Shown here piece by piece: positions 7,959-59,287 of a DNA stretch of 59,287 nucleotides. This DNA is from a bacterium (lineage in GTDB: Bacteria; Actinomycetota; Thermoleophilia; Solirubrobacterales; 70-9). Every line of letters begins with the position of its first letter. The first letter of the stretch is position 1. The notes beneath the pieces were generated by a model. It ran no database searches, had not been told where the DNA came from, and saw only the letters and a list, made by a program, of their open reading frames with translations. A program made the position numbers and the translations under genes. The stretch spans positions 1 through 59,287 of the forward strand of contig JBDTSW010000001.1 in the NCBI GenBank assembly GCA_039930945.1. Reading direction: 5' to 3'.

Positions 7959-8208
7959 ACGGGAATGACTCCGGCCAGATCCTCCGCTTCGCGTCCGGTC
8001 TGGCCGGGCGCGGGCCCCGGCCTTACCCGGCAGGGTGGCTGTGGTCTACCGCGACTGAGTCGCGAGCCCCAACGACCTCCCTAGGTGGGTTTGCCTGGGC
8101 TAGGGACGAAGTCCCGGGTCACGTGCATGAGCCTGCCGGGTAAGGCCCCGCGCCCTGACCCGTCGGAAGCGGACGCGAAGCGGAGCATTCCGGCGGAGTT
8201 GTTCCCGT
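7959..8208. repeat. 250-bp long imperfect inverted repeat (about 77-bp arms, 96-bp centre); candidate MITE-like element or structured RNA
   Basis: Arm 7959-8035 is complementary to arm 8132-8208. This includes two perfect 16-nt blocks: CTCCGCTTCGCGTCCG 7982-7997 pairs with 8170-8185, and GGCCTTACCCGGCAGG 8019-8034 pairs with 8132-8147. Terminal blocks ACGGGAA/TTCCCGT also pair. Confidence 0.7.
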
Positions 8209-8215
8209 TGCAGGT

Positions 8216-17558: not shown

Positions 17559-18824
17559 CTAGATCCGCTCGGCCGCGGAGGAGCTGAGGCGCTCCGCGTT
17601 CGGGCGCCCCTGCCAGCCGGATTTGGCCGCGACCAGTTGCAGGTCCATGATCCGGGCCTCGTCGAAGCCCGCCTCCGAGAGCGCCAGCCAGAGTGTCCAC
17701 AGCCGGCGGAAGCGCTCGTCGTAGCCGAGCTCGTCGAGCTGGGTCGCGGCCGCGACGAAACGCCGGCGCCAGTGGCGCAGGGTGAGCACGTAGCTGGGGC
17801 TGATGTCCTCGAGCCAGACCGTGCGCATGTCGGTGACCCGGGCGAGGCAGCGCTGGATCACCTCCAGCGAGGGCAGGCAGCCGCCGGGGAAGATCAGCTG
17901 GTTGGCAAGGCTGCGAGCGCTCTTCTCGGCCGCGAAGGCGCCGTCCTCGACCGCGATCGCCTGCAGGAAGAAGAGGCCGTGGGGCTCGAGCAGCGCCGAG
18001 CAGCGCTCGAAGAAGGCGTCGAAGTACTGCCAGCCGACGGCCTCGATCATCTCCAGCGAGACGAGCTTGTCGTAGCGCCCGGAGAGGTCGCGGTAGTCGT
18101 CGCCGAGCACCGTCACCCGGTCGGAGACGCCGGCCTCGCGGACCCGCGCCTCGGCGTAGGCGCGCTGCTCGCGCGAGATCGTCGTCGTCGTCACCCGGCA
18201 CCCGTACCGGGTCGCCGCGTAGGTGGCCATCCCGCCCCAGCCGGTGCCGATCTCGAGCAGGTGGTCGTCTCCCACCAACTCCAGCCGCCGGCAGACCCGC
18301 TCCAGCCTGGCGAGCTGGGCCTGCTCGAGGGTGGCGTCGGGGCGCTCGAACAGCGCCGACGAGTACATCATCGTCTCGCGGTCCAGGAACTGCTCGAACA
18401 GCCGATTGCCGAGGTCGTAGTGGGCGGAGATGTTGCGGCGCGCGCCGGAGCGCGTGTTCAGCAGCGGCAGCTGGCGGATGCGGGAGACGGGGCGAGACAG
18501 CGGGGCGAGGCGTCGCCGCAGCGGGTCGGCCCGCCGGACCTCGCGTGCGGCGATACGGCAGAGGCCGACGAGGTCGTCGGTCTCCCAGAGCCCGTCGGCG
18601 TAAGCGGTGCCGAGCCCGACGCTGCGCCCGCGGGCGAGCTCGACGTAGACCCGGGGCGAACGGACCTCGACCCGGATCGCCGGGCGGGCGGCGGCGCCGA
18701 GGACGACCTCGCCGCCCGACCAGGTCTCGTGCAGCTCGAGCCGACCCGAGCGCAGGCCTCGAAGCGCTTGGTGAACGATCGCCCGGGCGGCACGCTCGGA
18801 CGGCCGCAGACGGTCGGCGACCAT
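17559..18824 (-). CDS. cfa: cyclopropane-fatty-acyl-phospholipid synthase family SAM methyltransferase
   Basis: ISAHYDLGNRLFEQFLD, SAM motif LLEIGTGWGG, and YDKLVSLEMIEAVG are typical of Cfa/mycolic-acid cyclopropane synthases. Confidence 0.85.
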   Translation of the reverse strand: MVADRLRPSERAARAIVHQALRGLRSGRLELHETWSGGEVVLGAAARPAIRVEVRSPRVYVELARGRSVGLGTAYADGLWETDDLVGLCRIAAREVRRADPLRRRLAPLSRPVSRIRQLPLLNTRSGARRNISAHYDLGNRLFEQFLDRETMMYSSALFERPDATLEQAQLARLERVCRRLELVGDDHLLEIGTGWGGMATYAATRYGCRVTTTTISREQRAYAEARVREAGVSDRVTVLGDDYRDLSGRYDKLVSLEMIEAVGWQYFDAFFERCSALLEPHGLFFLQAIAVEDGAFAAEKSARSLANQLIFPGGCLPSLEVIQRCLARVTDMRTVWLEDISPSYVLTLRHWRRRFVAAATQLDELGYDERFRRLWTLWLALSEAGFDEARIMDLQLVAAKSGWQGRPNAERLSSSAAERI

Positions 18825-19291
18825 CAGCTCGCCGCCGGGATCGCCTCCGGCTGGGCCTCTGCCATGCCGAGCTCGCGCTCGAGCCCGGCCTTGGCGTTTT
18901 CGGCGAGGCGCTTGAAGGCGACCCGCATCGGCAGCTCCAAGAGCCGCAGCGGCCCCTTCAGCCGCAGGTCGGCGTCATAGGTGACGTCGGTGCCGGCGGC
19001 GTTCGCGGCGAAGGTGATCGTGTCGAGCGAAACCACCGCCGCGGTCTCGGCGCGCAGCACGACCCGCGCGGGGCGCTCCAGCTCTTCGATCTCGTAGGTG
19101 AAGGGAGTCTCGCGCCCGGCCGTCCTCACGACCACCTTCAAGCGCGAGCCGACGCGCGGCGGCCCCGAATCCAGGGCATGGGCCTCGACCACGCTGGGAT
19201 CCCATTCGGCCACCGAGGCAAAGTCCGCCAGGTAGTCGAAGGCCTCCTCGCGAGGCCTGGGAGTAGAGATGATTCCTAGGTAGCGTGGCAT
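18824..19291 (-). CDS. SRPBCC (START/polyketide cyclase-like) family protein
   Basis: 155 aa. FDYLADFASVAEWDP resembles SRPBCC ligand-binding proteins. Its stop overlaps the cfa start and it abuts the SDR stop. Confidence 0.7.
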   Translation of the reverse strand: MPRYLGIISTPRPREEAFDYLADFASVAEWDPSVVEAHALDSGPPRVGSRLKVVVRTAGRETPFTYEIEELERPARVVLRAETAAVVSLDTITFAANAAGTDVTYDADLRLKGPLRLLELPMRVAFKRLAENAKAGLERELGMAEAQPEAIPAAS

Positions 19292-22740: not shown

Positions 22741-24219
22741 GTGAATGATCGCAACGGAGATCGCCGCCGCCTCTCGGTCGGCATCGTCGGGGCCGGCTTC
22801 GGGGGGCTGGGGATGGGGGCCCGCCTCGCCCAGGAGGGCTACGACGACTTCACGATCTTCGAGCGCGGCGAGACCGTGGGTGGCGTCTGGCGGGCGAACT
22901 CCTACCCCGGCGCCGCCTGCGACGTGCCCTCACACCTCTACTCGTTCTCGTTTGCCCCCGGCCACGACTGGTCGCGCCGCTACGCGCCCCGGGAGGACAT
23001 CCTTGACTACCTCGAGGCCTGCGCCGACCGTTTCGGGCTGACTCCCCACCTGCGCCTGGGAACCGAGGCGACCTCCGCGAGCTTCGACGCCGACGCCGGC
23101 CAGTGGACGCTGACCACCGACTCCGGCTCCGAGCACCGCTTCGACATCCTCGTCACGGCCTGCGGACAGCTCTCACGGCCGGCGATCCCGCAGATCCCGG
23201 GGCTCGACTCCTTCCAGGGCCCGGCGTTTCACTCCGCCGAATGGGATCACTCCTACGACCTCGCGGCGCAGCGCGTCGCCGTGATCGGCACCGGGGCCAG
23301 CTCGATCCAGTTCGTGCCGGCGATCGCCCCGCTGGCCGAACGGCTGACGATCTACCAGCGCTCGGCGCCGTGGATCCTGCCGAAGGCCGACCGGGCCTAT
23401 CCCGCGTGGGAGCGGCGCCTGTTCAGGCGCTTCCCGCCGTGGGTGGCCGCCAGCCGGCTGGGGATCTTCGCGGCCCTGGAGGGGGCCACGTACGGGTTCA
23501 CGGGCGCGTCCTGGGTGATCCGCCCGGCGCGCGCCGCCGCCGACCGCTACCGGCACAAGGAGCTGCCCGATCCCGAGCTGCGCGCCGCGGCGACCCCCGA
23601 CTACGAGATGGGCTGCAATCGGGTGTTGATCTCGAACGACTGGTACTCGACGCTTCGCCGGCCGGACGTGGACCTGATCAGCGGCCCGGTCGAGCGAATC
23701 ACGGCGACCGGGGTCGTCGGCGCCGACGGCGTCGAGCGCGAGGCGGACGCGATCGTCTTCGGCACCGGCTTTCGAAGTCACGACTTCGTCGCCCCGATGG
23801 AGGTCCGGGGGCTGGGCTCGCGTGAGCTGAACGAGGTCTGGGCCCGGCGCCCGGAGGCGTTCCTGGGGACCACCGTTTCGGGGTTTCCGAACATGTTCGT
23901 CCTCTACGGGCCGAACACCAACCACGGGGCAGGCTCGGTGCCCTTCACGCTCGAGTGCCAGATTCGCTATGCGCTCGACGGCATCAGGCGCCTGCGCGAG
24001 GGCGGCTATCGCTACCTGGACCTGCGACCCGAGGCCCAGGAGCACTGGCGGGAGGAGATGGAAGAGCGCAGCCGCGAGACGGTGTGGATGTCGGGCGGAT
24101 GCTCCAACTGGTACGTCACCGCCGACGGCGTCAACACGAACAACTGGCCCGGCGCCTGGCTGGAGTTTCGCCGGCGCACCCACCGCATCAACCCCGGCGA
24201 CTACCGGGTCGCGGCCTAG
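22741..24219 (+). CDS. flavin-dependent Baeyer-Villiger-type monooxygenase (EthA-like)
   Basis: GAGFGG FAD motif, BVMO fingerprint FQGPAFHSAEWD (FxGxxxHxxxW), and a second Rossmann motif VIGTGASS. Confidence 0.85.
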   Translation: MNDRNGDRRRLSVGIVGAGFGGLGMGARLAQEGYDDFTIFERGETVGGVWRANSYPGAACDVPSHLYSFSFAPGHDWSRRYAPREDILDYLEACADRFGLTPHLRLGTEATSASFDADAGQWTLTTDSGSEHRFDILVTACGQLSRPAIPQIPGLDSFQGPAFHSAEWDHSYDLAAQRVAVIGTGASSIQFVPAIAPLAERLTIYQRSAPWILPKADRAYPAWERRLFRRFPPWVAASRLGIFAALEGATYGFTGASWVIRPARAAADRYRHKELPDPELRAAATPDYEMGCNRVLISNDWYSTLRRPDVDLISGPVERITATGVVGADGVEREADAIVFGTGFRSHDFVAPMEVRGLGSRELNEVWARRPEAFLGTTVSGFPNMFVLYGPNTNHGAGSVPFTLECQIRYALDGIRRLREGGYRYLDLRPEAQEHWREEMEERSRETVWMSGGCSNWYVTADGVNTNNWPGAWLEFRRRTHRINPGDYRVAA

Positions 24220-25490
24220 CCGCCCGGCGCGGCGCCCGCGGGCGCCGCGTTCAGCAAGGCCGCCGCCTCCAGCTCGACGCCCGGCGCCAGCGCCTCGAGG
24301 TCGCCGACCACGCCGGGGTCGGCGCAGAACCCGAAGCACAGCCGCCCTGCGATCGAGACCACCGCCACCCGCAGCGCGTGGCGCTCGCCGATCTCGGCCA
24401 GGCTGTGCACCGACTCCACAGGGGCGCCGCCGATGCTGACCGGCCCCCGCGGGCCGGGGACGTTGGAGACGCTGAGGGCGAAGCGGCGCGGACTCTGCTC
24501 GAGCCGGTCGCAGAAGCGTTGCAGCCGAGGCGAGGCGCGGCCGAGATCGCGCAGCATCTCGTCCATCTCCTCGGCGTCGTGCGCGGCCTTGCGCGCCGCC
24601 GTCGCGGCATGAACCGCGCCCAGGCAGGCCACCGGGTCGGCCTCGCCCAGCGGCAGCGCCAGGGCGAAGAACGAGTCTCGATTGCCGGCGTCGTCCCCCT
24701 CGTGATGGAGGCTGACCGGGACCTTCACGCGGATGGCGCCCAGCGACCCGTGGTGGGCTTCGAGCCAGCGGCGCAGGGCGCCGGCGACGATGCTGAGGAC
24801 GGCGTCGTTGACGGTGGCGCCGAGCGCCTTCGCCGCCGCGTGCAGCTCGTCGAGGGGAACCGAGGCGAACTCCACCCGCCGCTGCCGCCCGATCGCTGCG
24901 TCGAACGGCGAGCGGTGCCGCGAGCCGGCGAACTCCCGCTCGAGAAAGCCGACGAGGTGGCCGCGGCGGCGCTCGTCGTCGGCCCCGGCGTGGACACGGG
25001 CGGCGCCGGTGGGCGCCGGGGGCTCGGCGGCCTCGGCGTCCCAGAGCACGAGGCCGGCGTAGCGCATCGCCGTGGTGCCGTCGGCGACCGCGTGATGCAG
25101 CCGCCAGACCACGGCCAGCCGGCCCCCCTCCAGCGGCAGGGCGTCGATCTGCCAAAGGGGACGCCGCCGATCCAGCCGCTGGGCGAACAGCCGCGAGACC
25201 TCGCGGCGAAGGCCGGCGTCATCCAGCGGCGCCTCGGCTTGCGCCGCGACGACGTGCGCGGTCACCTCGAACGCCTCGTCGGGCACCCAGACGGGCGCGG
25301 CGGCGCTTGAAGACAGCCGCCGGGTCAGCGCCGGCGCGGCCTCGATTCGCGACGCGATCGTGGCTCGCAGCGCCGCCAGGTCGGGGGCGCCCGCGCCGAC
25401 GACGATCACCTTGCAGGTGTGCCCGGCGACGGTGTCGCTCTCGAGCTCGAGGATCGCCCTGTCCTCGGGCGTCAGGGGGATCGTCTCCAC
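24216..25490 (-). CDS. wax ester synthase/diacylglycerol acyltransferase (WS/DGAT)
   Basis: Catalytic HHAVADG (HHxxxDG) motif. PLWQIDAL and NVPGP motifs. Confidence 0.85.
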   Translation of the reverse strand: METIPLTPEDRAILELESDTVAGHTCKVIVVGAGAPDLAALRATIASRIEAAPALTRRLSSSAAAPVWVPDEAFEVTAHVVAAQAEAPLDDAGLRREVSRLFAQRLDRRRPLWQIDALPLEGGRLAVVWRLHHAVADGTTAMRYAGLVLWDAEAAEPPAPTGAARVHAGADDERRRGHLVGFLEREFAGSRHRSPFDAAIGRQRRVEFASVPLDELHAAAKALGATVNDAVLSIVAGALRRWLEAHHGSLGAIRVKVPVSLHHEGDDAGNRDSFFALALPLGEADPVACLGAVHAATAARKAAHDAEEMDEMLRDLGRASPRLQRFCDRLEQSPRRFALSVSNVPGPRGPVSIGGAPVESVHSLAEIGERHALRVAVVSIAGRLCFGFCADPGVVGDLEALAPGVELEAAALLNAAPAGAAPGG

Positions 25491-25543
25491 GATCCGGTGA
25501 CGCTATCCGGGCGTCATTCGCGCGCGTGACGTCGTCGGATCAC

Positions 25544-41375: not shown

Positions 41376-42452
41376 ATGGGCATCGCGATGCCAGTCGTCT
41401 GGACCGACCGCCACCGGCTGCACGAGCCGGGCGGCGAGATCTGGTTGGGCGTGCGCACCCCGGGCACCGAGCTGCCTGAGCGCGCCGAGCGCATCCGGGC
41501 GGCGCTGTCGGACGCGGGAGCCCGGATCGTCGACGCCCGGGAGCACCCCGACTCCGAGCTGCTGACGGTCCACGACGCGGCGCTCGTCGACTATCTGGCG
41601 AGCGCCCGGGCGGAGTGGGAGGCCGCGGGACTGACGAGCGACCCCGGCCAGGATCGGGTCGTCCCCTATCTTTTTCCCCACCCCGGTCTGCTCGGAGACC
41701 TCGTGCCGCCGATACCAGGGGCGGCGAGCGCCCGCGCCGGCTACTTCGCCTACGACACGATGACGCTGATCGGCCCCGGCACCTGGGAGGCTGCGCGCGC
41801 CGCCGTCGACGTCGCGCTGACCGCGGCCGACCTGGTTGCGGCCGGCGAGCCGGCGGCCTACGCCTGTTGTCGCCCTCCCGGCCACCACGCGACCCGCGGC
41901 GCCTTCGGTGGCTCCTGCTACCTGAACAACTCGGCCGCGGCCGCCGCCCGGCTTCGCGGCACCCTCGAGGCGCCGGTCGCCGTGATCGACGTCGACGCCC
42001 ACCACGCCAATGGCACCCAGGCGATCTTCTACGAGGACCCCGGCGTGCTCACCGGGTCGGTCCACGTCGACCCCGGGGCGGGCTGGTTTCCCCACTTCCT
42101 CGGCTTCGCCTCCGAGCGGGGCGCCGGCGAGGGCGACGGGGCCAACCTGAACCTGCCGCTCGCGCCCGGGTCGGGCGACGGGCCCTGGCTGGAGGCGGTT
42201 GGCTCGCTGGCGGCCTGGGCGGGTGAGCAGGGGGCCCGGGCGCTGGTGGTGGCCCTGGGAGTGGACGCCGCCGCCGGTGACCCGGAGAGCCCTCTGCAGG
42301 TCTCCGCCGACGGCTTCCGCGCCGCCGGGCGAACGCTGGGCGCCCTCGGGCTGCCGACGGTGGTCGTCCAGGAGGGCGGCTACGACCTGGAAGCGATCGG
42401 GGGGCTGGTCGCCGAGACGTTGGCCGGGATCGAAGAGGGGCTGGGGATCTGA
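41376..42452 (+). CDS. histone deacetylase family protein (acetylpolyamine/acetoin-utilisation-type amidohydrolase)
   Basis: CCRPPGHHA, DVDAHHANGTQ and EGGY motifs. ATG at 41376 (GGAG 5 nt upstream). The upstream part of track ORF 40323-42452 is antisense to kdd. Confidence 0.85.
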   Translation: MGIAMPVVWTDRHRLHEPGGEIWLGVRTPGTELPERAERIRAALSDAGARIVDAREHPDSELLTVHDAALVDYLASARAEWEAAGLTSDPGQDRVVPYLFPHPGLLGDLVPPIPGAASARAGYFAYDTMTLIGPGTWEAARAAVDVALTAADLVAAGEPAAYACCRPPGHHATRGAFGGSCYLNNSAAAAARLRGTLEAPVAVIDVDAHHANGTQAIFYEDPGVLTGSVHVDPGAGWFPHFLGFASERGAGEGDGANLNLPLAPGSGDGPWLEAVGSLAAWAGEQGARALVVALGVDAAAGDPESPLQVSADGFRAAGRTLGALGLPTVVVQEGGYDLEAIGGLVAETLAGIEEGLGI

Positions 42453-43681
42453 GCGATCGTGCCTTGGCATAGGACCTGGTAGATCGAGGTGAAGCCGACC
42501 TCGAAGCCGCTGCGGGCCGCCCGCAGGTACAGGCGCCAGACGCGGACGCGCTCCTCGCCGGCGATACGGATCGCGTCGGCGACGTTCTCGTCCAGGCGCC
42601 GCGCCCAGTGACGCAGGGTTTCGGCATAGTCGGCGCCGAACTCCTCGACATGGCGGGCGGGCAACCCGGCCCGCTCGAACGCGAGCAGGGCGCGGGAGAG
42701 GTGGATGGGATCGGCGTCGGGGAAGACGTAGCGCTCGGAGAACGGACCGGCCTTGGGGTCCGTGTGCCGTAGGCGAGTGATGCCGTGGTTCAGCAGCCTT
42801 CCGCCGGGTCGAAGCAGACCCGCGACCTGCTCGGCGTAGAGATCGATGTTCTCGGCGCCGACGTGCTCGACCATGCCGATCGAGGCAATCGCGTCGTAGC
42901 TGCCGGCGAGGTCACGGTAGTCGGCGACCTCGATCCGCACCCGATCGGCGAACCCCGCGGCAAGGACCCGCTGGCGGGCCTCCCGCGCCTGCGCCTCCGA
43001 GAGCGTCACACCCACCACCATCTCCGCTCCGCGCTCGGCAGCCGCGATCACGAAGCTCCCCCAGCCGCAGCCGATGTCCAGCACCCGGTCGCCGCGGCCG
43101 ATGCCCAGCTTGTCGGCGGTCAGCTCGAGCTTCGCCCGCTGGGCGTCCGCGAGCGAGGTGTCGTCGCGGGAGAAGAAGGCGCAGCTATAGGTCATCGACT
43201 CGTCGAGGAAGAGCGCGAAGAACTCGTTCGAGACGTCGTAGTGGTGGCGCACCGCCCGCGCGTCGCGTTCCTTGCTGTGCCGGGAACCCTTCGGGACCAG
43301 CTCCGCCCGGGGCCGCGCCGGCGGCTTGGTCAGCCCCGCCGCCCTGGCGGCGGCCGCGATCAGCCGCAGGCGGGTGGCGGCGGCGAGTGGCGGTGGCTTC
43401 CAACGCTCGAGCAGTGTGATCACCGCGTCGATGTCGTCGACGCTCAGCTCGCCGGATACGTAGGCGCGCCCGAGGCCCAGCTGGCCCGGGGCGCGCAACG
43501 CCTGCGCCACTGCCCGCGGCGAGCGAACCGCGAACGTCGGCCCGCCGGGTTCGGTCGCCGACACCTCGCCGCCGTCCCAGAAGACAATCCTGAAAGGCCG
43601 TTCCGGGAACGTCTGCTCGATCGCGTCGCGAAGCGCTCCGGGGCGGGCGAGGGCCATCGGCCCGAGCTTACTCCTGGGCAT
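42380..43681 (-). CDS. cyclopropane-fatty-acyl-phospholipid synthase family methyltransferase (second paralogue)
   Basis: HHYDVSNEFFALFLD, VLDIGCGWGS, YDAIASIGMVEHVG. The C-terminal roughly 24 codons overlap the convergent HDAC gene by 73 nt. Confidence 0.85.
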   Translation of the reverse strand: MPRSKLGPMALARPGALRDAIEQTFPERPFRIVFWDGGEVSATEPGGPTFAVRSPRAVAQALRAPGQLGLGRAYVSGELSVDDIDAVITLLERWKPPPLAAATRLRLIAAAARAAGLTKPPARPRAELVPKGSRHSKERDARAVRHHYDVSNEFFALFLDESMTYSCAFFSRDDTSLADAQRAKLELTADKLGIGRGDRVLDIGCGWGSFVIAAAERGAEMVVGVTLSEAQAREARQRVLAAGFADRVRIEVADYRDLAGSYDAIASIGMVEHVGAENIDLYAEQVAGLLRPGGRLLNHGITRLRHTDPKAGPFSERYVFPDADPIHLSRALLAFERAGLPARHVEEFGADYAETLRHWARRLDENVADAIRIAGEERVRVWRLYLRAARSGFEVGFTSIYQVLCQGTIAQIPSPSSIPANVSATSPPIASRS

Positions 43682-43825
43682 GCCGCGACCACGATCAAGC
43701 TCTTGAGCGCTGGTGCTCGAGGTGCTGATCGGCGTCGAGGGTCAGCAGCCATGAGCCGCGCCAGCGACGTCCAGACGACCCCAGCAGCGCCGGGGCGGTC
43801 GGCACGCCTCACGCTTCGGCGCGGC

Positions 43826-45703: not shown

Positions 45704-47017
45704 CTAGACGCCGGGCCGGGACAGTGCCCGGATCGCGTACAGGTTGAACTCGGTCATCTCGACCAGATCCGCGACCGCCAGGCATTCATCGGCGCTGTGC
45801 ATGCCGTCGCTGTAGACGATCGGGTCGGTCGCGAACACGGGCGCGAACCCGTAGGCGACGGTGCCGTGCGCATCGCGGATCCAGTGCGAGTCGGTGAACC
45901 CTGGCGAGACGAGCGGGAGCATCTGTGCCCCGGGCAGCCGCCCGGCGACGTACTCCTCGCAGAGGCGATACAGCGGGGTGTCGATCGGCGACTCGGTCCC
46001 CCCGGCCATCGGCTCGAGCAGCTCGATCTCGTAGCTGAGGCCATCGCCGAGCGCCCGGGCCACGTGGGCGCGGACATCGGCCTCGGTCTCGCCCGGCAGG
46101 GCCCGGCAGTCGCAGACGACGTCGGCGTACGGTGGGATCACGTTGCTGGGCTCGAAGGTCTGCAGCCCCGTCGGCGTCACCGTCATCCGGGTCATCGCCG
46201 GAATCAGACCGGAGAGGATCGGGTGCTGGCCGCACGCCCAGGCGACGACCTCGTCCTCGTTGCCCGACGGGGCGCCGAGGCCCTCCAGAGCGCGGGCGAT
46301 CGCCGGGATCAACCGGGTCGGGGCCTCGCACGCCTGCAGCCGGGTGACCGCGTTGGCGGCGTTCGCAACCGCGTTGTCGGCGCCCTCCGGGACCGAGGCG
46401 TGCCCGGCGCGGCCGTGGACCCGGATCCGCAGCGAGGTCACCTGCTTTTCGCCGATCGAGATGGTCACCACCCGGCGGCCGTCGGCGAGCTCGAGCAGCG
46501 ATCCACCACCCTCGTTGATCGCGAAGTCGCAGCGCAGGTCGGGCCGCTCGCGGGCCAGCCAGGACATGCCGACGTCGGCGGTGCAGCGCTCCTCGTCGGA
46601 CTCGGCGATCAGGACGACGTCGCCCGCCGGGCGCTCGCCGCTGCGCGCGCAGGCGGCCAGCGCCGCCGCCCGGGCCGCCAGCTCGCCCTTCATGTCGGCG
46701 GCCCCGCGGCCGACGACGTGCCCGTCGCGGAGGGCACCGTCAAACGGCCCCACCGACCAGCCCTCGGTGGGAGCCGGAACGACGTCGGTGTGGCCGAGCA
46801 ACAACAAGGATGGACCTTCACCGCCGGCCACGCGAGCGACAAGGTTGAGCCGCTCCGGATCGGGGCCGATCAGCTCGCACTCGGCGCCGGCGTCGCGCAG
46901 GTACGACGCCAGCAGCTCCGCCGCGGGCGTTTCATTACCCGGGGGGTTCGAGGTGTCGAGGCGGATCAGCTCCCGCGCCAGCGAGACGACCTCGTCCTGG
47001 AGTCCGTTCGCGGGCAT
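45704..47017 (-). CDS. M20 family metallopeptidase (ArgE/DapE/CPG2-like)
   Basis: LLLLGHTDVVP, GRGAADMKG, ESDEE metal-ligand motifs. The ATG at 47017 (MPANGL) is preferred over the track start at 47125. Confidence 0.85.
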   Translation of the reverse strand: MPANGLQDEVVSLARELIRLDTSNPPGNETPAAELLASYLRDAGAECELIGPDPERLNLVARVAGGEGPSLLLLGHTDVVPAPTEGWSVGPFDGALRDGHVVGRGAADMKGELAARAAALAACARSGERPAGDVVLIAESDEERCTADVGMSWLARERPDLRCDFAINEGGGSLLELADGRRVVTISIGEKQVTSLRIRVHGRAGHASVPEGADNAVANAANAVTRLQACEAPTRLIPAIARALEGLGAPSGNEDEVVAWACGQHPILSGLIPAMTRMTVTPTGLQTFEPSNVIPPYADVVCDCRALPGETEADVRAHVARALGDGLSYEIELLEPMAGGTESPIDTPLYRLCEEYVAGRLPGAQMLPLVSPGFTDSHWIRDAHGTVAYGFAPVFATDPIVYSDGMHSADECLAVADLVEMTEFNLYAIRALSRPGV

Positions 47018-48413: not shown

Positions 48414-50300
48414 TCAGCCGCGCAGGGCGCGGAGCGCATTCAGGATCACCGCGACGTCGATGCCCTCCTGGAGCAGCGCTCCGGCGACGGGCGAGATATA
48501 GCCGAATGCGGCGAATCCCATCGCGACGAAGCTCAGCCCCAGGCCCGCGAGCACGCTTTGCCGGGCGATCCCCAGGGAACGGCGGCCGATGCGAATCGCG
48601 TCAACTACGCGGTCGACCCGATCGGCCGCGATCACGGCGTCTGCGGTCTCCGACGACACGGTCGCTCCGGCCCCTCCCATGGCGATGCCCACGTCGGCGA
48701 GCGCGAGCGCCGGCGCGTCGTTCACCCCGTCGCCGACCATGATCACCGACCGCAGCTCCGGGCGACTGCGAGCGCCGCGAACTACGTCGATCTTGTCCTC
48801 GGGCGAGCGCTCGGCGTATACGCGGTCGACCCCCACCCGCTCTCCGACGGCTTCGGCGACATCACGCCGGTCGCCGGTGACCAGCGCGATCCGCACGATG
48901 CCGATTTCGCGCAGTTCGCTGGTCAGCTCGGCGGCGTCCGCTCGCACCCGATCGGCCATCAGGATCGCTCCGGCAAGGGCGCCGTCGATGCCGACCAGCA
49001 CCCGGGCGAACCCGGGCTCCGAGTCGCCGTCGAGCAGCTGGGCGGCGCCGGCGACGCCCGAGTAGCCGAGGTGCTCGAGCCAGGCCGAGCTCCCGACCGC
49101 GACGCGGTGACCCTCGACACGCCCCTCGATCCCCTGGCCGGGGTCCTCGACCACGTCCTCCGGAAACGCAAGCTCGATGCCGCGGGCCTCGGCGCCGTGC
49201 ACGAGCGCCTCGCCCAGCACGTGGGCGGAGAGCTGGTCGACCGACGCGGCCAGCCTCACAAGCGCGTTTGGCTGCAGGCCGTCAAGGGCCTCCACGCGCT
49301 CGATCTCGGGTCGTCCGTGAGTCAGGGTTCCGGTCTTGTCGAAGAGCACCGTTTGCGCGCGCCCCAGCTTCTCGATCGTCCCCCCGCCCTTGACGATGAC
49401 GCCACGGCGGGCCGCACGCGAAACGCCGGAGATCAGCGCGATCGGCGCCGCAAGGATGAGCGGACACGGAGTGGCGACGACGAGCACGGCCAGGGCCCTG
49501 ACAGGAGAGCCGCTCAGTGCCCAGGCGCCTCCCGCGACGACCAGGGTGACGGGCAGCAGCAAGGCCGCGTAACGGTCCGCGAGCCGGACGAAGGGCGCCC
49601 GTTGGCGCTCAGCCTCGCGGACAAGCCGCACGATCCCGCTGTAGGCGCTGTCGGCGGCGGTCCGGATCGCCCGCAGGTCGAACGCCTCCCCGGTGTTGAT
49701 GGTTCCGCTCGCCACCGTGGTCCCCCGCTGATGCGAGACCGGCAGGGGCTCGCCGGTGAGCATCGATTCGTCGAGCATCGCGTGGTCGCTCTGGACGGCG
49801 CCGTCCACCGGCACGACCTCGCCGGCCCGGACCAGGACGCGGTCGCCGACCAAGAGCTCTTCGACCGGCACCTCCTCGAGCCTGTCCTCCAGGCGGCGAT
49901 GCGCGATTCTCGGCGCCCGCTCCAAGAGCGATGTCAGCTCACGCCGCGCCCGGCGCCCGGCGGCTGCTTCGAGCGCATTGCCTCCGCTGAGCATCAGCGC
50001 GATCACCACCCCGGCCAGATACTCGCCAAGAGCCAGCGCGCCGGCCATCGCCACCAGCGCGATCGCATCGACGCCGACGTCACCGCGGGCGAGGCTTCGT
50101 CCCACCGACCATGTCAGTGGAAGCAGGGTGACGGCGATCGCCATCGCCCAGACAACGTCTCCGGCATTGCCGTCGCCGAAGAGATGGAGTGCGCCCCCTG
50201 CCGCGAGCGCCAGCAAGATCAGGCCGACAAGCACTCGCGGGTCGGTGGCGCCGAGCGCAGTCGCGCGGTACTTCAGGGTGTCGAACCTGGCGCTGGACAC
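48414..50300 (-). CDS. heavy-metal P1B-type ATPase without an N-terminal metal-binding domain, with TPCP transmembrane motif
   Basis: TGEPLPV, VVATPCPLILAAP, DKTGTLT, GDGVNDAPAL, and the last-TM sequence QEGIDV. There is no CxxC/HMA region before the first TM. Confidence 0.9.
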   Translation of the reverse strand: MSSARFDTLKYRATALGATDPRVLVGLILLALAAGGALHLFGDGNAGDVVWAMAIAVTLLPLTWSVGRSLARGDVGVDAIALVAMAGALALGEYLAGVVIALMLSGGNALEAAAGRRARRELTSLLERAPRIAHRRLEDRLEEVPVEELLVGDRVLVRAGEVVPVDGAVQSDHAMLDESMLTGEPLPVSHQRGTTVASGTINTGEAFDLRAIRTAADSAYSGIVRLVREAERQRAPFVRLADRYAALLLPVTLVVAGGAWALSGSPVRALAVLVVATPCPLILAAPIALISGVSRAARRGVIVKGGGTIEKLGRAQTVLFDKTGTLTHGRPEIERVEALDGLQPNALVRLAASVDQLSAHVLGEALVHGAEARGIELAFPEDVVEDPGQGIEGRVEGHRVAVGSSAWLEHLGYSGVAGAAQLLDGDSEPGFARVLVGIDGALAGAILMADRVRADAAELTSELREIGIVRIALVTGDRRDVAEAVGERVGVDRVYAERSPEDKIDVVRGARSRPELRSVIMVGDGVNDAPALALADVGIAMGGAGATVSSETADAVIAADRVDRVVDAIRIGRRSLGIARQSVLAGLGLSFVAMGFAAFGYISPVAGALLQEGIDVAVILNALRALRG

Positions 50301-50357
50301 GCGGCCAAGGATGACGCACCGCCCGGGCCAGCAGGCGGGGGCCGGTGGCGCGACCCC

Positions 50358-52115
50358 TTAGGGTCGCATCTCGTAGGTCCCGGCCAGCCCCCGAGCCTTC
50401 TCCCAGACGCCGGCGAAGCGTCCCTCGTCCACAACCGGCTTGCGGATTTGGTCGACCGCCCAGGCCTGCTGGGAATCCGTGGAGGACGAGCAGCCGTGCA
50501 GAGCCACGGCGTGGCTGGAGAAGTCACGAATGATCACGTCGAAGATCTGATCGATGGTGTCGTCGGCCAGCTCGGTCAGCGCGGCCTGCTCGAGGATCAG
50601 CTGCCCGTAGACGACGAGGGTGAAGAGCTCGCCGAGCCTGAGCATGAAGTCGAGATCCCGGATCTGATCCTGCGAGGGCGGCGCCGTCTCGAGCAGGGAC
50701 CCCAGACCCTCCGCCTGCTCGGCGAACCGCGCCACGTTCGGAACCCGGGCGAACGGTTCGTAGGCGTCGCGCCAGTCGGCGAAGCGGATCTTCCCCAGCC
50801 CTCTCGCCGGGCCCTGGTGAAAGAGGAACTCGTCGTCGGCCTCCTCGTGGCGCTGCGGCACGGGCTCGTAGGGGGCCGGGTTGAACAGGTAGTTGGCCAT
50901 GAACTTGAGGACCAGCGCCATGTTGACGTGCACGGTTCCCTCGAGCTTCGGCAGGGCGCGGATGTCGCGCGCCGCCATCTCGAAATACATGTCCTTCTCG
51001 AAGCCCTTGGCCGCGATCACGTCCCAGAGCAGGTCGATCACGGTCTCGCCCTCGGTCGTGACCTTCATCTTCGTGATCGGGTTGTAGAGCAGATATCGCC
51101 GGTCCTCGGGACCGGCCGATCGCATGTAGTCGATGGCCCGCCTGCCGAACAGCTTCATCGCCACCAGGCGGGCATAGGCGTCCGTCAGGGCTTGGCGCAC
51201 GTGCGGGAAGTCGGTGACCCGCATGCCATAGAGGATGCGCCCGTCCGCGTGCGTGATCGCCTCATGGAAGGCGTGCTCGCAGATGCCGATCGAGGCGAAG
51301 CCGAGGTTGAACTTGCCGATGTTGACCGTGTTCAGCGCCGCGTCGAAGGCCGCGCGGCCGGTGTGAAGCACGTCATCGGGCCGCACCGGGTAGTCCTCGA
51401 GCCGGAACTGGCTGACGTAGGACTGCGAGTTGACGACGTTCTTGATCAGGCGGTACGCGGGGTGGCCGCTGTCGGCGGTGAAGAACACGTACCCGTCCGC
51501 GCCCTCGATGTCGGCCCTGCGGCCGAAGACCGAGACCATCCCGGCGAGGTTGCCGTTGCCGATGTAGTACTTGCCCCCGCTGGCGCTGAAGCCATCCCCG
51601 TCGGGCGTCAGCACCATGTCCGTCGAGTAGACGTCGGCTCCGTGCTCTTGCTCGGACAGCCCGAAGGCGAAGATCGCGCCTTCGTCGAGCAGATCCGCGG
51701 CACGCCGTCGCGCCGACTCGTTCTCGCTCTGCCAGATCGGGCCGAGCCCCAGGATCGAGACCTGCCACGTGTACCAATAGGCGAGCCCGTAGAAGGCGGT
51801 GATCTCGTTGAAGGCGCAGATCCGGTTCGTGTCCCAGCGCTTGTCAGGATCGTCGCCCGCCTCCGCGGACGGCGTCAGCAGGGTGGCAAAGACGCGCTCG
51901 CGCTTGACGAATTCCAGGAAGTCCGCGTACCAGACGTGATCTCGGTCATGCTCCTTCAGCACCTGCTTGCCGCGCGACTCGAAGAACTCGATCGTGGCCA
52001 GCATCAGCCGGCGTGACTCGGGGTCGAGGTCCGCTCCCTCGTACCTTCCCGGGTTGAGCAGGACCGCGCCCGCGGCCGACCTGTCCGTCCTCGCCTGTTG
52101 CTCAACGCTCGCCAT
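50358..52115 (-). CDS. long acyl-CoA dehydrogenase family protein
   Basis: 585 aa. ACAD-like middle and C-terminal segments (FGLSEQEHGADV, KYYIGNG, NIGKFNLG, EGTVHVNMALV). Confidence 0.8.
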   Translation of the reverse strand: MASVEQQARTDRSAAGAVLLNPGRYEGADLDPESRRLMLATIEFFESRGKQVLKEHDRDHVWYADFLEFVKRERVFATLLTPSAEAGDDPDKRWDTNRICAFNEITAFYGLAYWYTWQVSILGLGPIWQSENESARRRAADLLDEGAIFAFGLSEQEHGADVYSTDMVLTPDGDGFSASGGKYYIGNGNLAGMVSVFGRRADIEGADGYVFFTADSGHPAYRLIKNVVNSQSYVSQFRLEDYPVRPDDVLHTGRAAFDAALNTVNIGKFNLGFASIGICEHAFHEAITHADGRILYGMRVTDFPHVRQALTDAYARLVAMKLFGRRAIDYMRSAGPEDRRYLLYNPITKMKVTTEGETVIDLLWDVIAAKGFEKDMYFEMAARDIRALPKLEGTVHVNMALVLKFMANYLFNPAPYEPVPQRHEEADDEFLFHQGPARGLGKIRFADWRDAYEPFARVPNVARFAEQAEGLGSLLETAPPSQDQIRDLDFMLRLGELFTLVVYGQLILEQAALTELADDTIDQIFDVIIRDFSSHAVALHGCSSSTDSQQAWAVDQIRKPVVDEGRFAGVWEKARGLAGTYEMRP

Positions 52116-52132
52116 CTTCTCCGCCGCCGATC

Positions 52133-53329
52133 CTACCCCTGGTCGCCATCAGCCCCTGGCCTTGCGGTATCGGCCACCTTGCCCGCCGTGACCGTGTGGG
52201 CGACCAGCGGGACCCCGGGCCGGTAGACGAGGTGGGCGTGTGAGGGCGCGTCGAGGACGACGGCGTCGCCGCGCGCGCCCGGGCTCAGGCGGCCGAGGTC
52301 GTCGCGGCGCAGGGCGCGAGCGCCCCCCAGCGTCGCGGCCCGAAGCGCCTCGTCCGCGGTCATCCGCAGGTCGCGAACCGCGAGCGCGATGCAGAAGGCC
52401 ATCGAGGTGGTGAAGCTCGATCCCGGGTTGCAGTTGGTCGCGATCGCGACCGTGGCGCCGGCATCGATCACCCGCCGGGCGTCGGGGTAGGGCTGGCGGG
52501 TCGAGAAGTCGGTCGCCGGCAGGAAGGTGGCGACGGTCTCGGACTCGGCGAGCGCGGCGACGTCGCCGTCGTCGAGATAGGTGCAGTGGTCGACCGAGGC
52601 CGCGCCCAGCTCGACCGCCAGCCCCACGCCCGGCCCGGGCCCGAGTTGGTTGCCGTGCACGCGCAGGCCGAGCCCGGCAGCACGGCCTGCCGCCAGCACC
52701 GCGCGCGCCTGCTCGGCGTCGAAGGCGCCGCGCTCACAGAAGACGTCGATCCAGCGGCAATGCGGCGCGCACGCTTCGAGCATCTCGCCGCAGACGAGGG
52801 CGACGTAGTCGTCCGCCCGTCCCTCGTACTCCGGCGGCACCGCGTGCGCGCCGAGGAAGGTGACCTCGTCGGTCAACCGGCCCGCAACCTCGCACAGGCG
52901 GCGCTCGGTCTCGACGTCGAGCCCGTAGCCGGACTTGATCTCGAGTTCGGTGATGCCGGCGCGCAGCGCCTCGGCGCGGCGGGCCCGGGCCAGGCGCTCG
53001 AGCTCGTCGCTCGATGCCATCCGGGTGGCCTCGGTCGTCACCCTGATCCCACCCGCCTCGTACGGTGCGCCCGCCATCCGCGCGACGAACTCCTCGGCGC
53101 GATCGCCGGCGAAGACCAGGTGCGTGTGCGAGTCGACGAAGCCTGGGATCACGCAGCGCCCGCCGGCGTCGAGGCGCTCGTCGCCGGCCGCGCCGGCGGC
53201 CTCGATCGCCGCCACCCGCCCGCCGGCGATCACCAGCGCGCAGTCGCGTCGCAGGCCCAGCGGTCCCTCGCCGAGCTCGGGGTCGTTGCTGACCAGCAGG
53301 CCGATGTTGTCGATCACCAGCGCGCTCAC
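52133..53329 (-). CDS. hutI: imidazolonepropionase
   Basis: [35 protein letters not shown] and ATNCNPGS are canonical HutI motifs. Confidence 0.9.
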
Positions 53330-54663
53330 CGGGCGGTCACCGCCTCGATCGCCGCGCGCAGCTCGGCCGCGACGTCGATCTCTGAGTGCCGGCCGTCTCG
53401 CACGACCACCCGGCCGCCGGCGATCAGCTGGCGCACGTCGGCGGCGGTCGCGGCGAAGGCCAGCGCCTCCAGCGCCTGGTCGTCGGTGGCGCCGGCGAGG
53501 CGGACCCCGTCGAGCGAGACGGTGACCAGGTCGGCGACGGCCCCGGCCTCGATCCGCCCGGCCTCGGCCCAGCCGATGCCGGCATGCCCGTGCTCGCAGG
53601 CGGCGCGCAGGAGCTCCGGCGCGGTGTGATGGCCGCGCTCCCCGGTGGCGAGGCGCTGATCAAGCTCGACCGCACGCATCTCCTCGAAGTGGTCGATCAC
53701 GGCCTGTGAGTCCGAGCCCAGCGTGAGCCGGGCTCCGGCGTCGGCGATCGCTCGCGCCCGCCCGATCCCGTCGGCGAGGTCGCGCTCGGTGGTCGGGCAC
53801 AGACAGCAGTGGGCGCCGGCGCCGCCGAGCAGGTCGACGTCGGAGTCGGAGACGTGGGTGAAGTGGACGGCGGTGAAGCGCTTGCCGAGCGCGCCGGCCT
53901 GGTCGAGAACGCCGGTCGGGGTCAGCCCGTGCGCGGCCAGGCAGGCCTCGTTCTCGGCCGGCTGCTCGGAGACGTGCGCGTGCAGCGGGCAGGAGCGTCC
54001 TTCGGCCCAGGCGGCCACGCTCGCCGCCGAGGAGGGGTCGACCGCGCGGACGCTGTGGATCGCCGCGCCCACTCGCGCCGCCGGGCCGAGCTCGCCCAGC
54101 GCCTCGACCCGCTGGGCCCATTCCTCGACGCCGACGTCGCCGAAGCGAAGCTGGTCACGCTCCAGCTGCAGGCCCGGCCCGGCCTGCAGGTAGCAGGCGT
54201 CGAGCAGGGTGATCCGGATGCCGGCCTCGCCGGCGGCGGCGACCAGCGCCCGGCCGATCTCGTTCGGATCGTCGTAGGGCGCGCCGCCCGGACCGTGGTG
54301 GAGGTAGTGAAACTCGCCCACGGCGGTGATCCCGGCGAGCGCCATCTCGGCGAAGGTCGCACGGGCGAGCGCGTGGCAGCTGTCGGGGTCCAGCGCCGCG
54401 GCGAGCCCGTACATCGTCTCGCGCCAGCTCCAAAAGGATCCCCGGCCGCCCTCGGCGCGGCCGCGCAGCGCGCGATGGAAGGCGTGGGAGTGGGCGTTCG
54501 CAAGCCCCGGGATCGTCAGGCCCTCGAGTCGCGTCGCCCCCGGCGGCGGCGCCGCGGCGCCGGGCTCGACAAGCGTGAAGCGATCGCCCTCGACCTCGAC
54601 CACCACCCCCGGTTCGGCGGCGTCGCCCCCCAGCCAGGCGAGCTCGCACCAGTACGCCGTCAC
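53326..54663 (-). CDS. hutF: formimidoylglutamate deiminase
   Basis: [42 protein letters not shown] and LGSDSQ closely follow my recollection of Pseudomonas HutF. Confidence 0.85.
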
Positions 54664-55234
54664 GAACCGGTTCGCTCGGTCAGGGCGGTGACCCGTTCGA
54701 CGAAGGCGTCGCGGTGAAAGCGCTCGAACTGCTCCCAGGTGGCGAAGGTGGTGGGATCGGTGACCCGATCCAGGAACAGGGTCCCGGCGAGGTGGTCAAC
54801 CTCATGCTGGAAGGTGCCTGCGGTCAGGCCCCGCTTGACCTCGTCGTGTGAGACGCCCTCACGGTCGAGGTATCGCAGGCGGATCGCGACGTGGCGCATC
54901 AGGTTCCCCCGCAGGCCGGGCACCGAGAGGCAGCCCTCGTTGTTGCAGAACTGCTCATCGTCGAGCGGCTCGACCGTCGGGTTGACGACCACGGTCAGCG
55001 GGATCGGCGGCTTGTAGGGGTAGCGCGGGTTGACTCCCTCGATCTCGGCGACCGCGATCCGCACCCCAACCCCGACCTGGTTGGCGGCAAGCCCGGCCCC
55101 GTCGGCGGCACGCCTGGTCTCGATCAGATCGTCGATCAGCGTCTGCATCTCGGCCGAGCGAAGCTCCTGCGGCGAAACCTCGCGCGCGGGCTCGCGCAAC
55201 ACGGGGTCACCGACCGCGACGATCTCGCGAACGC

Positions 55235-55238
<4 letters not shown>
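54660..55238 (-). CDS. def: peptide deformylase homologue embedded in the hut operon
   Basis: All three PDF motifs are present: [31 protein letters not shown] overlaps with hutU upstream and hutF downstream. Confidence 0.85.
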
Positions 55239-56889
<1,651 letters not shown>

Positions 56890-56893
<4 letters not shown>

Positions 56894-58452
56894 TCCAGCG
56901 CTCCGATCGCCGTCTCGACCGCTTCCAGCGCCGCCCCCGATCCGACCAGGCGCTCGATCTCGGCCAGCTCCGGCGCAAGGAAGCGGTCGGGTCCCGGCCC
57001 ATCGGCCACGGCTCGAACCGCCTCCAGCGCCGCCGCGGTGCCCGCGGCCGGCGCCAGCGGGGCGCGCAGGTCGAGGGCGCGCGCCGCGCAGGCCAGCTCG
57101 ACGCTGAGGATCCTGCCCAGGTTGGCGAGGGTCTGCCGGAGCTTGCGCGCCGCCCCCCAAGCCATCGAGACATGGTCCTCCTGCATCGCGCTGGTCGGCA
57201 GCGAGTCGACGCTCGCCGGGGCCGCAAGCCGGCGGTTGTGGGCGACCATCGCCGCCTGGGTGTAGTGGGCGATCATCAGGCCCGAGTCGACGCCGGCATC
57301 GTCGGCCAAGAAGGGCGGCAACCCCTGCGAGCGGCCGGCGTCGAGGAGGCGATCGGTGCGCCGCTCCGCGATCGCCCCGACCTCGGCGGCGCCGATCGCG
57401 AGCAGGTCGCAGGCGAGGCCGAGCGGGGCACCGTGGAAGTTTCCGCAGGACTCGATCCGCCCGTCCGGCAGCACCATCGGATTGTCGATCGCCGATCGCA
57501 ACTCCGCCTCCGCGATCCGCTCGGCGTGATCGAGCGCGTCGCGCGCGGCCCCGATCACCTGGGGAGCGCAGCGCAGCGAGTAGGCGTCCTGAATGCGGCG
57601 ATCGTCGTGGCGATGGCTGGCGACGATCTCCGACCCGGCCAGCAGCCGGCGCAGGTTCGCCGCGCTCGCCGCCTGACCGGGTTGCGGCCGCAGCGCGATC
57701 AGGTCCTCGGCGAAGGCTCGATCGGTGCCCAGCAGAGCCTCGACCGACATCGCCGCGGCGACGTCGGCGAGCCGCAGCAGCCGGCGCAGGTCCGAGATCG
57801 CCAACAGCAGCATCCCGAGGATGCCGTCGGTGCCGTTGATCAGCGCCAGCCCCTCCTTCGCGGTCAGCTCGATCGGATCGATGCCCGCCTCGGCGAGCGC
57901 CTCCGCCGCGGCAAGCCGGCGGCCGTCGGCCGTGACGGCCTCGCCCTCGCCGATCAGCACCAGCGCGCAGTGCGCCAGCGGCGCGAGGTCCCCGCTCGCC
58001 CCCAGCGAGCCGTGCTCGGGCACCACCGGAGTCAGCCCGGCGTTGAGCAAGGAGAGGATCATCTCCGCGATCTCGGGGCGGGCGCCCGAGTAGCCCATCG
58101 CCAGGGTGCGGGCCCGCAACAGCATCATCGCCCGCACCACCTCACCCTCGACCGGCTCCCCCATCCCCGCGGCGTGCGAGCGCAACAGCGAGCGCTGCAG
58201 CTGCCGGCGCCGCTCCGCGGGAATCGAGACCGCCGCCAGCGAGCCGAAGCCGGTCGAGACCCCGTAGGCGGGCTCTGCAGAGCCCGCCATGCGCTCCACG
58301 ATCGCCGCGCTTCGTGCCATCGCCTCGCGAGCTTCGGCCGCCAGTGCGACCGGAGCCGAATCGCGAGCGACCGCGACCACGTCGCCGGGCGCCAGGCCGG
58401 TGCCGGTGAGCTCGATCGCCCCTCCTGCAGACACCACCCCGTTATATGGCAA
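56890..58452 (-). CDS. hutH: histidine ammonia-lyase
   Basis: MIO-forming [28 protein letters not shown]. The start is TTG 58452 or GTG at 58437/58434. Confidence 0.9.
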
Positions 58453-58531
58453 TCGCGCGGGGCTTGGGTGGACCGGGGCCGCCCAGGGACGACCTCTGGG
58501 GCGAGCCCTCCGCAGGGCGTGGGTCTTGCCG

Positions 58532-58807
58532 CTAGCGCTTGATCGTGTTGTGGACCTCGATCAGCTCCGGCTCGCCCGCCTCAATCCCGATCTCGGCCAG
58601 CAACGGCATCAGCCGGGCGCCAAACGCCTGGAACTGTTCTTGGGAGTCCCAGATCTCGCTGACTCGTCTGTTGTCGCCGGAGCCAAAGCAGACGTGGTAT
58701 TCCAGCCCATCCGGGGGCCAGTCGCCGCCCTGTTCGAGTCGGCGGATGCTTTCGTCGTACTGCTCGACGGTCAGGGACGGGGGGGTGAAGCGGACAAGAA
58801 CGCTCAT
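58532..58807 (-). CDS. small conserved hypothetical protein (91 aa)
   Basis: Strong GAGGAGGAG SD 8 nt upstream, high GC3 and balanced composition. No family assigned. Confidence 0.65.
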   Translation of the reverse strand: MSVLVRFTPPSLTVEQYDESIRRLEQGGDWPPDGLEYHVCFGSGDNRRVSEIWDSQEQFQAFGARLMPLLAEIGIEAGEPELIEVHNTIKR

Positions 58808-59045
58808 CGTGAAGCTCCTCCTCGGTCGGGTGCCCGCCGACCCTATCCGACGAGCACATCCGGTTCACGCAGGAACCGCTGGAGCGCGAGCCATTCGTGC
58901 ATGGGGGCCTGGCATCGGCCGCTCACGGGAACGCGACCTCTCCGGTCTGCTACGACCAGAGAGGAACGATCGTGAACAACATCAGAATGAAGATCGCCGC
59001 CGGGGCCACGATCCTCGGATTGGGCGGCCTGGATCGCCGGGCGCT

Positions 59046-59210
59046 CTAGCCGAGGCGCTCGCGCAGAAACGACGCGAGCTTCGGGCCGCTCGCCGGGTCG
59101 AGCATGTTCAGCGCCGGGACCGAGACCAGCTTCTCGACCAGCGCGACGCCGGCCTCGGTGCACGTCGCCCGCCCGGCGATCAGGTCGGGCCGGATCTCGA
59201 ACGCGCTCAT
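59046..59210 (-). CDS. possible small protein (54 aa), below the ORF-track length cut-off
   Basis: My translation reads MSAFEIRPDLIAGRATCTEAGVALVEKLVSVPALNMLDPASGPKLASFLRERLG. Nearly every codon ends in G/C. The ATG shares one nucleotide with the stop of an upstream in-frame reading frame (TGATG). Confidence 0.4.
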   Translation of the reverse strand: MSAFEIRPDLIAGRATCTEAGVALVEKLVSVPALNMLDPASGPKLASFLRERLG

Positions 59211-59287
59211 CACCCCGACCACCCCGTAGGGGGATCTTCGTCGGCCTGGCGGTCGGCCGCATCCTCCCCGGCCTCGCCTTCGCGCTG
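59210..59287 (-). CDS. 3' end of an unidentified gene entering from the right window edge
   Basis: Open minus-strand frame reading ...QREGEAGEDAADRQADEDPPTGWSG-stop. Only 25 codons are visible. Confidence 0.3.
   Translation of the reverse strand, partial: QREGEAGEDAADRQADEDPPTGWSG

Follow-up and report, generated by a model that had tools for sequence, protein, structure and literature searches.

We describe a gene for a homologue of peptide deformylase (PDF), here called PDFh, that lies within a histidine utilization (hut) operon of a bacterium of the order Solirubrobacterales (Actinomycetota; Thermoleophilia). The DNA analyzed, hereafter the window, is a stretch of 59,287 nucleotides (assembly GCA_039930945.1, contig JBDTSW010000001.1, positions 1 to 59,287) that makes up the entire contig and has a G+C content of 71%. 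Based on genomic context, gene fusions and residues of the predicted substrate pocket, we propose that PDFh is a PDF-fold N-formylglutamate deformylase that would catalyze the final step of histidine catabolism, and we assign this reading a probability of roughly 0.7. A preliminary description of the window had suggested that a Def paralogue was recruited for this reaction as a non-orthologous replacement of HutG, and conserved synteny, fusion to HutF and the pocket now give that suggestion strong, though inferential, support. We also think it quite probable that the subfamily, recognized by its CD-loop signature and by pocket residues A-G-T with the G-T before QHExDH, is a third non-homologous family of N-formylglutamate deformylases. 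Such a family would close the HutF branch in Thermoleophilia, Acidimicrobiia and probably some Myxococcota, and would occur as a bifunctional PDF::HutF protein in stramenopile protists. No publication that connects N-formylglutamate or hut with a PDF homologue turned up in our literature search.

HutH, HutU and HutI convert histidine to N-formimidoyl-L-glutamate, which HutF deiminates to N-formyl-L-glutamate. Many Actinomycetota have HutF, with no recognizable HutG. The operon in the window consists of the following genes, given with their scores against curated models.

56890..58452, minus strand: hutH, histidine ammonia-lyase, step 1 (TIGR01225, 646 bits; PF00221)
55235..56893, minus strand: hutU, urocanate hydratase, step 2 (TIGR01228, 941 bits, with profile positions 1-545 covered)
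54660..55238, minus strand: the PDF-fold gene, PDFh, 192 amino acids, proposed N-formyl-L-glutamate deformylase, step 5 (PF01327, 145.5 bits)
53326..54663, minus strand: hutF, formimidoylglutamate deiminase, step 4, whose product is N-formyl-L-glutamate (NF006681, 613 bits, cutoff 362; TIGR02022, 464 bits)
52133..53329, minus strand: hutI, imidazolonepropionase, step 3 (TIGR01224, 359 bits, cutoff 298)

The preliminary description had reported this head-to-tail order on the minus strand, a GTGA overlap at all four junctions, and intact catalytic and metal-binding motifs in the PDF homologue. Open reading frames (ORFs) and curated models agree with the order. At each junction, a GTG start overlaps the preceding TGA stop exactly where it had been placed (56893-56890, 55238-55235, 54663-54660 and 53329-53326), and all three motifs are present in the sequence. 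Operons of high G+C content often have four-base overlaps, which taken alone are unremarkable. The association of PDFh with hut is judged non-random because the linkage recurs across genomes.

More than 120 relatives of PDFh, at 70-93% identity, come from Solirubrobacterales and other actinobacterial metagenome-assembled genomes (MAGs), and every named relative in this range is labelled "peptide deformylase." Two relatives on long contigs reside in the same hutH-hutU-PDF-hutF-hutI cluster with unrelated flanks, and a PhyH dioxygenase is inserted in one of these clusters. We also scanned one genome per species, using the clade alignment as query, and found a relative in at least 592 genomes. 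The best 80 loci, from Thermoleophilia, Acidimicrobiia and a few Myxococcota, were kept, and their hut neighbors were called by tblastn with the Hut proteins of the window. Hut genes lie beside PDFh in 72 of these 80 loci, HutF in 70 and a hut gene within 200 nucleotides in 69, so the placement of a def-like gene inside hut recurs in species-level genomes of two actinobacterial classes. Among unrelated flanking genes, 13 gene arrangements occur, including H-U-PDF-F-I, U-PDF-F-I, U-F-PDF-I, F-I-PDF, F-PDF-I-H and H-U-F-I-PDF. The linkage has outlived rearrangement and is therefore not a frozen accident.

A second line of evidence comes from fused genes. An exhaustive HMMER search over 1.84 billion representatives led to P0201, a clean protein of 659 amino acids whose first 190 residues are of the PDFh type and whose remainder is HutF. 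The HutF half is 41% identical to HutF of the window and scores 377 against NF006681 (cutoff 362). With P0201 as query, at least 14 more clusters were found in which PF01327 and a HutF domain share one ORF (640-736 amino acids, 55-70% identical to P0201), for a total of at least 15 protein clusters. For several of the fusions the source is a transcriptome in EukProt, among them those of Paraphysomonas (a stramenopile, heterotrophic chrysophyte) and MMETSP1103. Two fusions were inspected on genomic contigs; each is one unbroken ORF, and the genes around them (EF-hand, ankyrin, Oscp1 and full-length ABC) form a eukaryotic neighborhood. When enzymes of successive steps are fused, this is a classic sign that they serve one pathway. 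Because the PDFh type is fused to HutF, a ribosome-associated housekeeping role is hard to reconcile with these proteins.

Other apparent long fusions (P0128, P0129, P0134, P0136, P0150, P0162, P0165, P0196 and others) were rejected as frameshift read-throughs from high-GC contigs. These chimeras contain Arg/Ala-rich junk segments and show adjacency to HutU or HutF only, and they were excluded from the fusion count. Such read-through PDFh-HutU/HutF chimeras in a public representative library could pass for real domain fusions.

Two further observations favor PDFh as the missing enzyme: a bona fide HutF is there to make the substrate, and the window shows no known HutG. A Pfam scan of approximately 45 likely genes (ORFs) of the window found neither FGase (PF05013) nor an arginase-type enzyme (PF00491), and neither glutamate formiminotransferase nor an arginase-family formiminoglutamase is present among these ORFs. 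As a probe for FGase, we used a Pseudomonas aeruginosa HutG sequence that was validated with Pfam (PF05013, 257 bits). With phmmer, this single-sequence probe, whose sensitivity is limited, gave no match in 1.52 Mb, the combined length of the window and 90 related loci. When all six-frame ORFs were searched with a profile, the window and each of 84 loci had exactly one PDF, and neither in the window nor in the 10 kb to either side of PDFh in the 84 loci was any other enzyme for the N-formylglutamate step found.

These searches bear out the earlier statement that no HutG-like or formimidoylglutamase gene is present in the window. The accompanying statement that the PDF homologue is the only formyl-amide hydrolase there holds with respect to FGase, arginase-type enzymes and a second PDF, but it overlooked an amide hydrolase of the ArgE/DapE-type M20 family at 45704-47014 (minus strand), approximately 5 kb beyond hutI. 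This M20 hydrolase was considered as the real HutG and rejected as a member of the module: it has no counterpart near hut in the 84 loci and is only 24-28% identical to M20 hydrolases that are linked to HutF in other organisms.

The HutF-linked M20 hydrolases occupy the same slot beside HutF as PDFh does and belong to a different superfamily. In oomycetes (Phytophthora, Pythium, Lagenidium and Globisporangium), an ArgE-like M20 hydrolase is C-terminal to HutF in one protein (P0291, P0303, P0327, P0340, P0346, P0381, P0385 and P0387). On an acidobacterial contig (L089), the gene for an ArgE-like M20 hydrolase overlaps the start of HutF by four bases (8835-10004 and 10001-11314). Neither the window nor any PDFh locus contains this M20 type. 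Because M20 hydrolases are fused to HutF or overlap it elsewhere, alternative hydrolases appear to take the HutF slot, which is therefore filled by FGase, M20 or the PDFh type, depending on the lineage. The step after HutF is a known annotation problem. An M20 candidate from Streptomyces avermitilis had no deformylase activity when assayed (PMC3223725). The oomycete fusions and the acidobacterial overlap revive the hypothesis of M20 as an alternative HutG despite that negative assay.

By sequence, fold and its three motifs, PDFh belongs to the peptide deformylase superfamily. PF01327 is its only Pfam match and covers profile positions 1-153 of 156; no homology to FGase (PF05013) was detected in the Pfam search. 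PDFh scores 153.9 bits against NF001159 (cutoff 125). Against the equivalog model TIGR00079 it scores 106.4 bits, which exceeds the cutoff of 103.95 by only 2.5 bits, and the PDF domain of P0201, the HutF fusion, falls below this cutoff (95.2 bits). We count the narrow margin in favor of a function other than that of ordinary PDFs. The AF2 model of PDFh has a pLDDT of 94. Foldseek ranks the Leptospira interrogans PDF first among its matches in the PDB (41% identity, TM as high as 0.97), with Burkholderia PDFs and a P. aeruginosa "class I type b" PDF next; in all of these, as in PDFh, R-Y-P forms the core of an enlarged CD loop. The C-terminal helix, which in the E. coli PDF is the ribosome-binding element, has a net charge of -2 in PDFh versus +6 in E. 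coli, and this difference also counts in favor of the proposed role. Plasmids in PLSDB carry only ordinary PDFs, at no more than 44.9% identity.

Motifs of the G-x-G-L-A-A-x-Q type, EGCLS and HEVDH are invariant in the 26 members of the clade alignment. The residues on which the proposed function depends are as follows.

55095..55097, minus strand: Ala48 in motif 1 (GAG), S1' pocket, at the position of E. coli Ile44 and AtPDF1B Ile42 (alignment)
55008..55031, minus strand: CD-loop signature NPRYPYKP, residues 70-77, in which Tyr75 and Lys76 are subfamily-specific (26-sequence clade alignment)
54924..54938, minus strand: motif 2, EGCLS, with Cys103 as metal ligand (sequence and clade alignment)
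54813..54818, minus strand: Gly141-Thr142, S1' pocket, at the positions of E. coli Ile128 and Cys129 (alignment)
54792..54806, minus strand: motif 3, HEVDH, with His145 and His149 as metal ligands and Glu146 as catalytic residue (sequence; invariant in the clade alignment)

Alignment with characterized PDFs reveals differences in the pocket that are family-specific and co-varying, and at three positions the subfamily differs from all of these PDFs. The hydrophobic S1' residues of functional PDFs are not found in PDFh, and the residues that replace them, Ala48, Gly141 and Thr142, show little or no variation within the subfamily. Gly141 aligns with Ile128 of E. coli and Ile130 of AtPDF1B, and Thr142 with Cys129 of E. 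coli. Ala48 is present in the 26-sequence clade alignment, in the HutF fusions and in 83 of the 84 loci (L055 has Gly). In AtPDF1B, Ile42 and Ile130 are key to the hydrophobic S1' pocket, and contact with the methionine side chain makes the active site close (PMC3101196).

Tyr75-Lys76 is invariant in the clade alignment and common to the HutF fusions; the genome scan was seeded with the NPRYPYKP motif, whose presence in the scanned loci is therefore by construction. The corresponding residues are Gly-Thr in the Leptospira PDF and Asp-Ala in the P. aeruginosa type 1b PDF. The full set of Ala48, Gly141, Thr142 and Tyr75-Lys76 is common to the bacterial and HutF-fused forms and rare in other PDFs. 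Among 74 clean representative PDFs, Tyr-Lys is accompanied by Gly-Thr in 12 of 14, versus 4 of the 60 others (Fisher p = 6.7e-9). Arg at position 141 is found in many PDFs whose residue 75 is Asp or Glu, which suggests that these two sites touch. Lys76 or Tyr75 might thus reach the space freed by Gly141 and could bind a gamma-carboxylate.

In the proposed mechanism, PDFh would hydrolyze the formamide bond of N-formyl-L-glutamate to yield formate and L-glutamate (EC 3.5.1.68), with the chemistry of PDF unchanged. A metal ion held by Cys103, His145 and His149 would activate water, Glu146 would act as general acid/base, and Gln54 and the amide of Leu104 would polarize the formyl oxygen. The pocket for the formyl-bearing residue is altered, in that Ala48, Gly141 and Thr142 replace bulky hydrophobic S1' residues, and the glutamate side chain would lie there. 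Its gamma-carboxylate would presumably be bound by Lys76, Tyr75 and Thr142, the Tyr75-Lys76 pair being placed in the enlarged CD loop. The free alpha-carboxylate may lie near, or be bound by, Arg110 (Arg97 in E. coli). PDFh is also predicted to be translationally coupled to hutU and hutF, and would therefore be made only together with the pathway.

The closest known systems are the type 1 PDFs with a long CD loop (Leptospira interrogans, 1SV2 and 1Y6H; P. aeruginosa class I type b, 6JF9), which have the same fold as PDFh (TM 0.86-0.97, 41-42% identity). In common with PDFh they have the three motifs, the metal ligands, the Arg that follows EGCLSVPG (Arg110) and an enlarged CD loop with R-Y-P at its core. 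However, at the S1' positions where PDFh has Ala48, Gly141 and Thr142, these PDFs have Val/Ile, Ile/Arg and Val/Cys. PDFh also differs from them in Tyr75-Lys76, which takes the place of Gly-Thr or Asp-Ala, and in a conserved C-terminal segment, T-W-x-x-F-x-x-F-H-R. Its context is a hut operon or a HutF fusion, whereas theirs is a housekeeping one. Pseudomonas HutG (FGase, PF05013, EC 3.5.1.68) catalyzes the reaction proposed for PDFh and occupies the same position directly after HutF, but is unrelated to PDFh in sequence and fold. The arginase-family formiminoglutamase HutG (EC 3.5.3.8) and glutamate formiminotransferase are alternative endings of the Hut pathway that use N-formimidoylglutamate as substrate and involve no HutF.

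Several observations weigh against assigning PDFh to N-formylglutamate. Pfam and NCBIfam both class it as a PDF, and its closest solved structures are genuine peptide deformylases. A crude neighbor-joining tree of 78 PDFs does not unite the bacterial and fused domains that carry YK and GT, and its backbone is recovered in 0 of 50 bootstraps. The changes enlarge the pocket and raise its polarity, yet no obvious cation is gained on the helix, and the reach of Lys76 into the pocket is proposed from co-variation only. One complete-looking cluster, L037 (6768-11805), has the order hutH-hutU-PDFh-hutI, lacks a hutF in the 10 kb flanking it on each side, and is the only such cluster to lack the enzyme that makes the proposed substrate. 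In eight of the 80 loci, mostly from Myxococcota, no hut gene lies within 10 kb; the organisms are Sorangium So ce315, Polyangium fumosum, four myxobacterial or delta-proteobacterial MAGs and two Acidimicrobiia MAGs. The hut-less Myxococcota MAGs include two in which PDFh directly follows the gene for an Xaa-Pro amino/dipeptidase (M24B, with AMP_N and M24 domains), at the positions given here.

L071: Xaa-Pro peptidase at 8615-10004, then PDFh at 10001-10576, overlapping
L081: Xaa-Pro peptidase at 8583-9950, then PDFh at 10001-10573

Finally, a prediction from context has failed before for this same step, namely that of the S. avermitilis M20 hydrolase (PMC3223725).

The Xaa-Pro peptidase neighbors hint at a peptide-related role for some members, which would be different or broader there. 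They favor a rival explanation in which PDFh is a broad-specificity catabolic deformylase that acts on free N-formyl amino acids and short formyl-peptides, either taken up or derived from protein turnover. N-formylglutamate would then be one substrate among several, and the hut linkage would mirror the main source of such compounds in Actinomycetota. The eight loci without hut neighbors and an S1' pocket that is enlarged, yet not obviously tailored to a carboxylate, agree with this explanation. However, the HutF fusion and an operon linkage of 90% point to one dedicated step, and Lys76 and Thr142, which do not vary in the family, suggest a polar ligand of a defined kind. Moreover, hutF may sit elsewhere in the large myxobacterial genomes. 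On balance, we regard a broad specificity as unlikely.

The dull alternative named in the preliminary description, a housekeeping PDF that lies in the hut operon by chance, appears very improbable. The catalytic motifs are all intact, PDF family thresholds are passed, the nearest structures are real PDFs and no second def was seen in the 59-kb window, all of which would be expected of such an enzyme. However, one would hardly expect an essential constitutive enzyme to be translationally coupled within an inducible catabolic operon in 72 of 80 species and two classes, and still less that this linkage would be kept through changes of gene order. The HutF fusion in eukaryotic microbes, the replacement of the key hydrophobic S1' residues for methionine and the marginal TIGR00079 score likewise argue against a housekeeping function. 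Equally improbable is that PDFh acts on a different amide or amidine of the hut pathway, for instance by converting N-formimidoyl-L-glutamate to glutamate and formamide in the manner of a formiminoglutamase, or acts on a side product: the cluster L037 without hutF would fit, and metal-activated water could in principle attack the formimidoyl carbon, but in 70 of 80 loci HutF is a neighbor and in protists a fusion partner, which would be redundant if PDFh bypassed it, and the formyl site keeps its oxyanion-binding residues.

Several further observations concern the surroundings of the hut operon. A scan of positions 49800-59287 for promoters and terminators yielded nothing above the shuffled background. 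A gene for a 585-amino acid acyl-CoA-dehydrogenase-like protein (50358-52115, minus strand) starts 17 nucleotides past the hutI stop on the same strand and may be co-transcribed with hutI. It is not kept beside hut in related loci, where the only match is a weak one (23% identity, in L068). A 91-amino acid ORF without a Pfam match (58532-58807, minus strand) ends 80 nucleotides upstream of hutH and was not found in related loci. No regulator gene (HutC/GntR or IclR) is visible beside the operon in the window; the locus L003 has a divergent IclR gene. In hut operons of Acidimicrobiia, a PhyH-family Fe(II)/2-oxoglutarate dioxygenase without an NCBIfam name repeatedly lies between hutU and PDFh (L003 and L004, 9213-9998; L017, 4697-5338; L028, 8874-10004; L029, 9207-10004; L056, 2415-3236; L060, 8770-9675).

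Elsewhere in the window, we observed the following genes.

8159-11881, plus strand: a multidomain protein of 1,240 amino acids with a double zinc ribbon, an adenylate/guanylate cyclase domain, an AAA_16 ATPase and TPR repeats
17559-18974, minus strand: one of two paralogous CMAS (cyclopropane-fatty-acyl-phospholipid-synthase-like) methyltransferase genes
42380-43741, minus strand: the second CMAS methyltransferase gene
24216-25502: a WS/DGAT wax-ester synthase

Among bacterial enzymes, PDF ranks with the most conserved and the most often targeted by drugs. The June 2026 release of NCBIfam offers solely peptide-deformylase models for PDFh. From the comparisons above, PDFh most likely represents a known fold with a new function and adds an isofunctional family to a known reaction; this family is widespread and probably misannotated at present. 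If the proposed function is correct, PDFh would be, to our knowledge, the first PDF-fold enzyme whose substrate is a small molecule and not a peptide, and a handful of pocket changes would have shifted the fold from nascent peptides to a metabolite. It would also fill a pathway hole for which an earlier M20 candidate failed in an assay (PMC3223725). The label "peptide deformylase" would be wrong for this subfamily, a copy of which occurs in at least 592 species-level genomes, and the misannotation would touch metabolic models, counts of def paralogues and inferences on resistance to PDF inhibitors. The PDF::HutF fusions of protists would be natural two-step enzymes and a clean test system.

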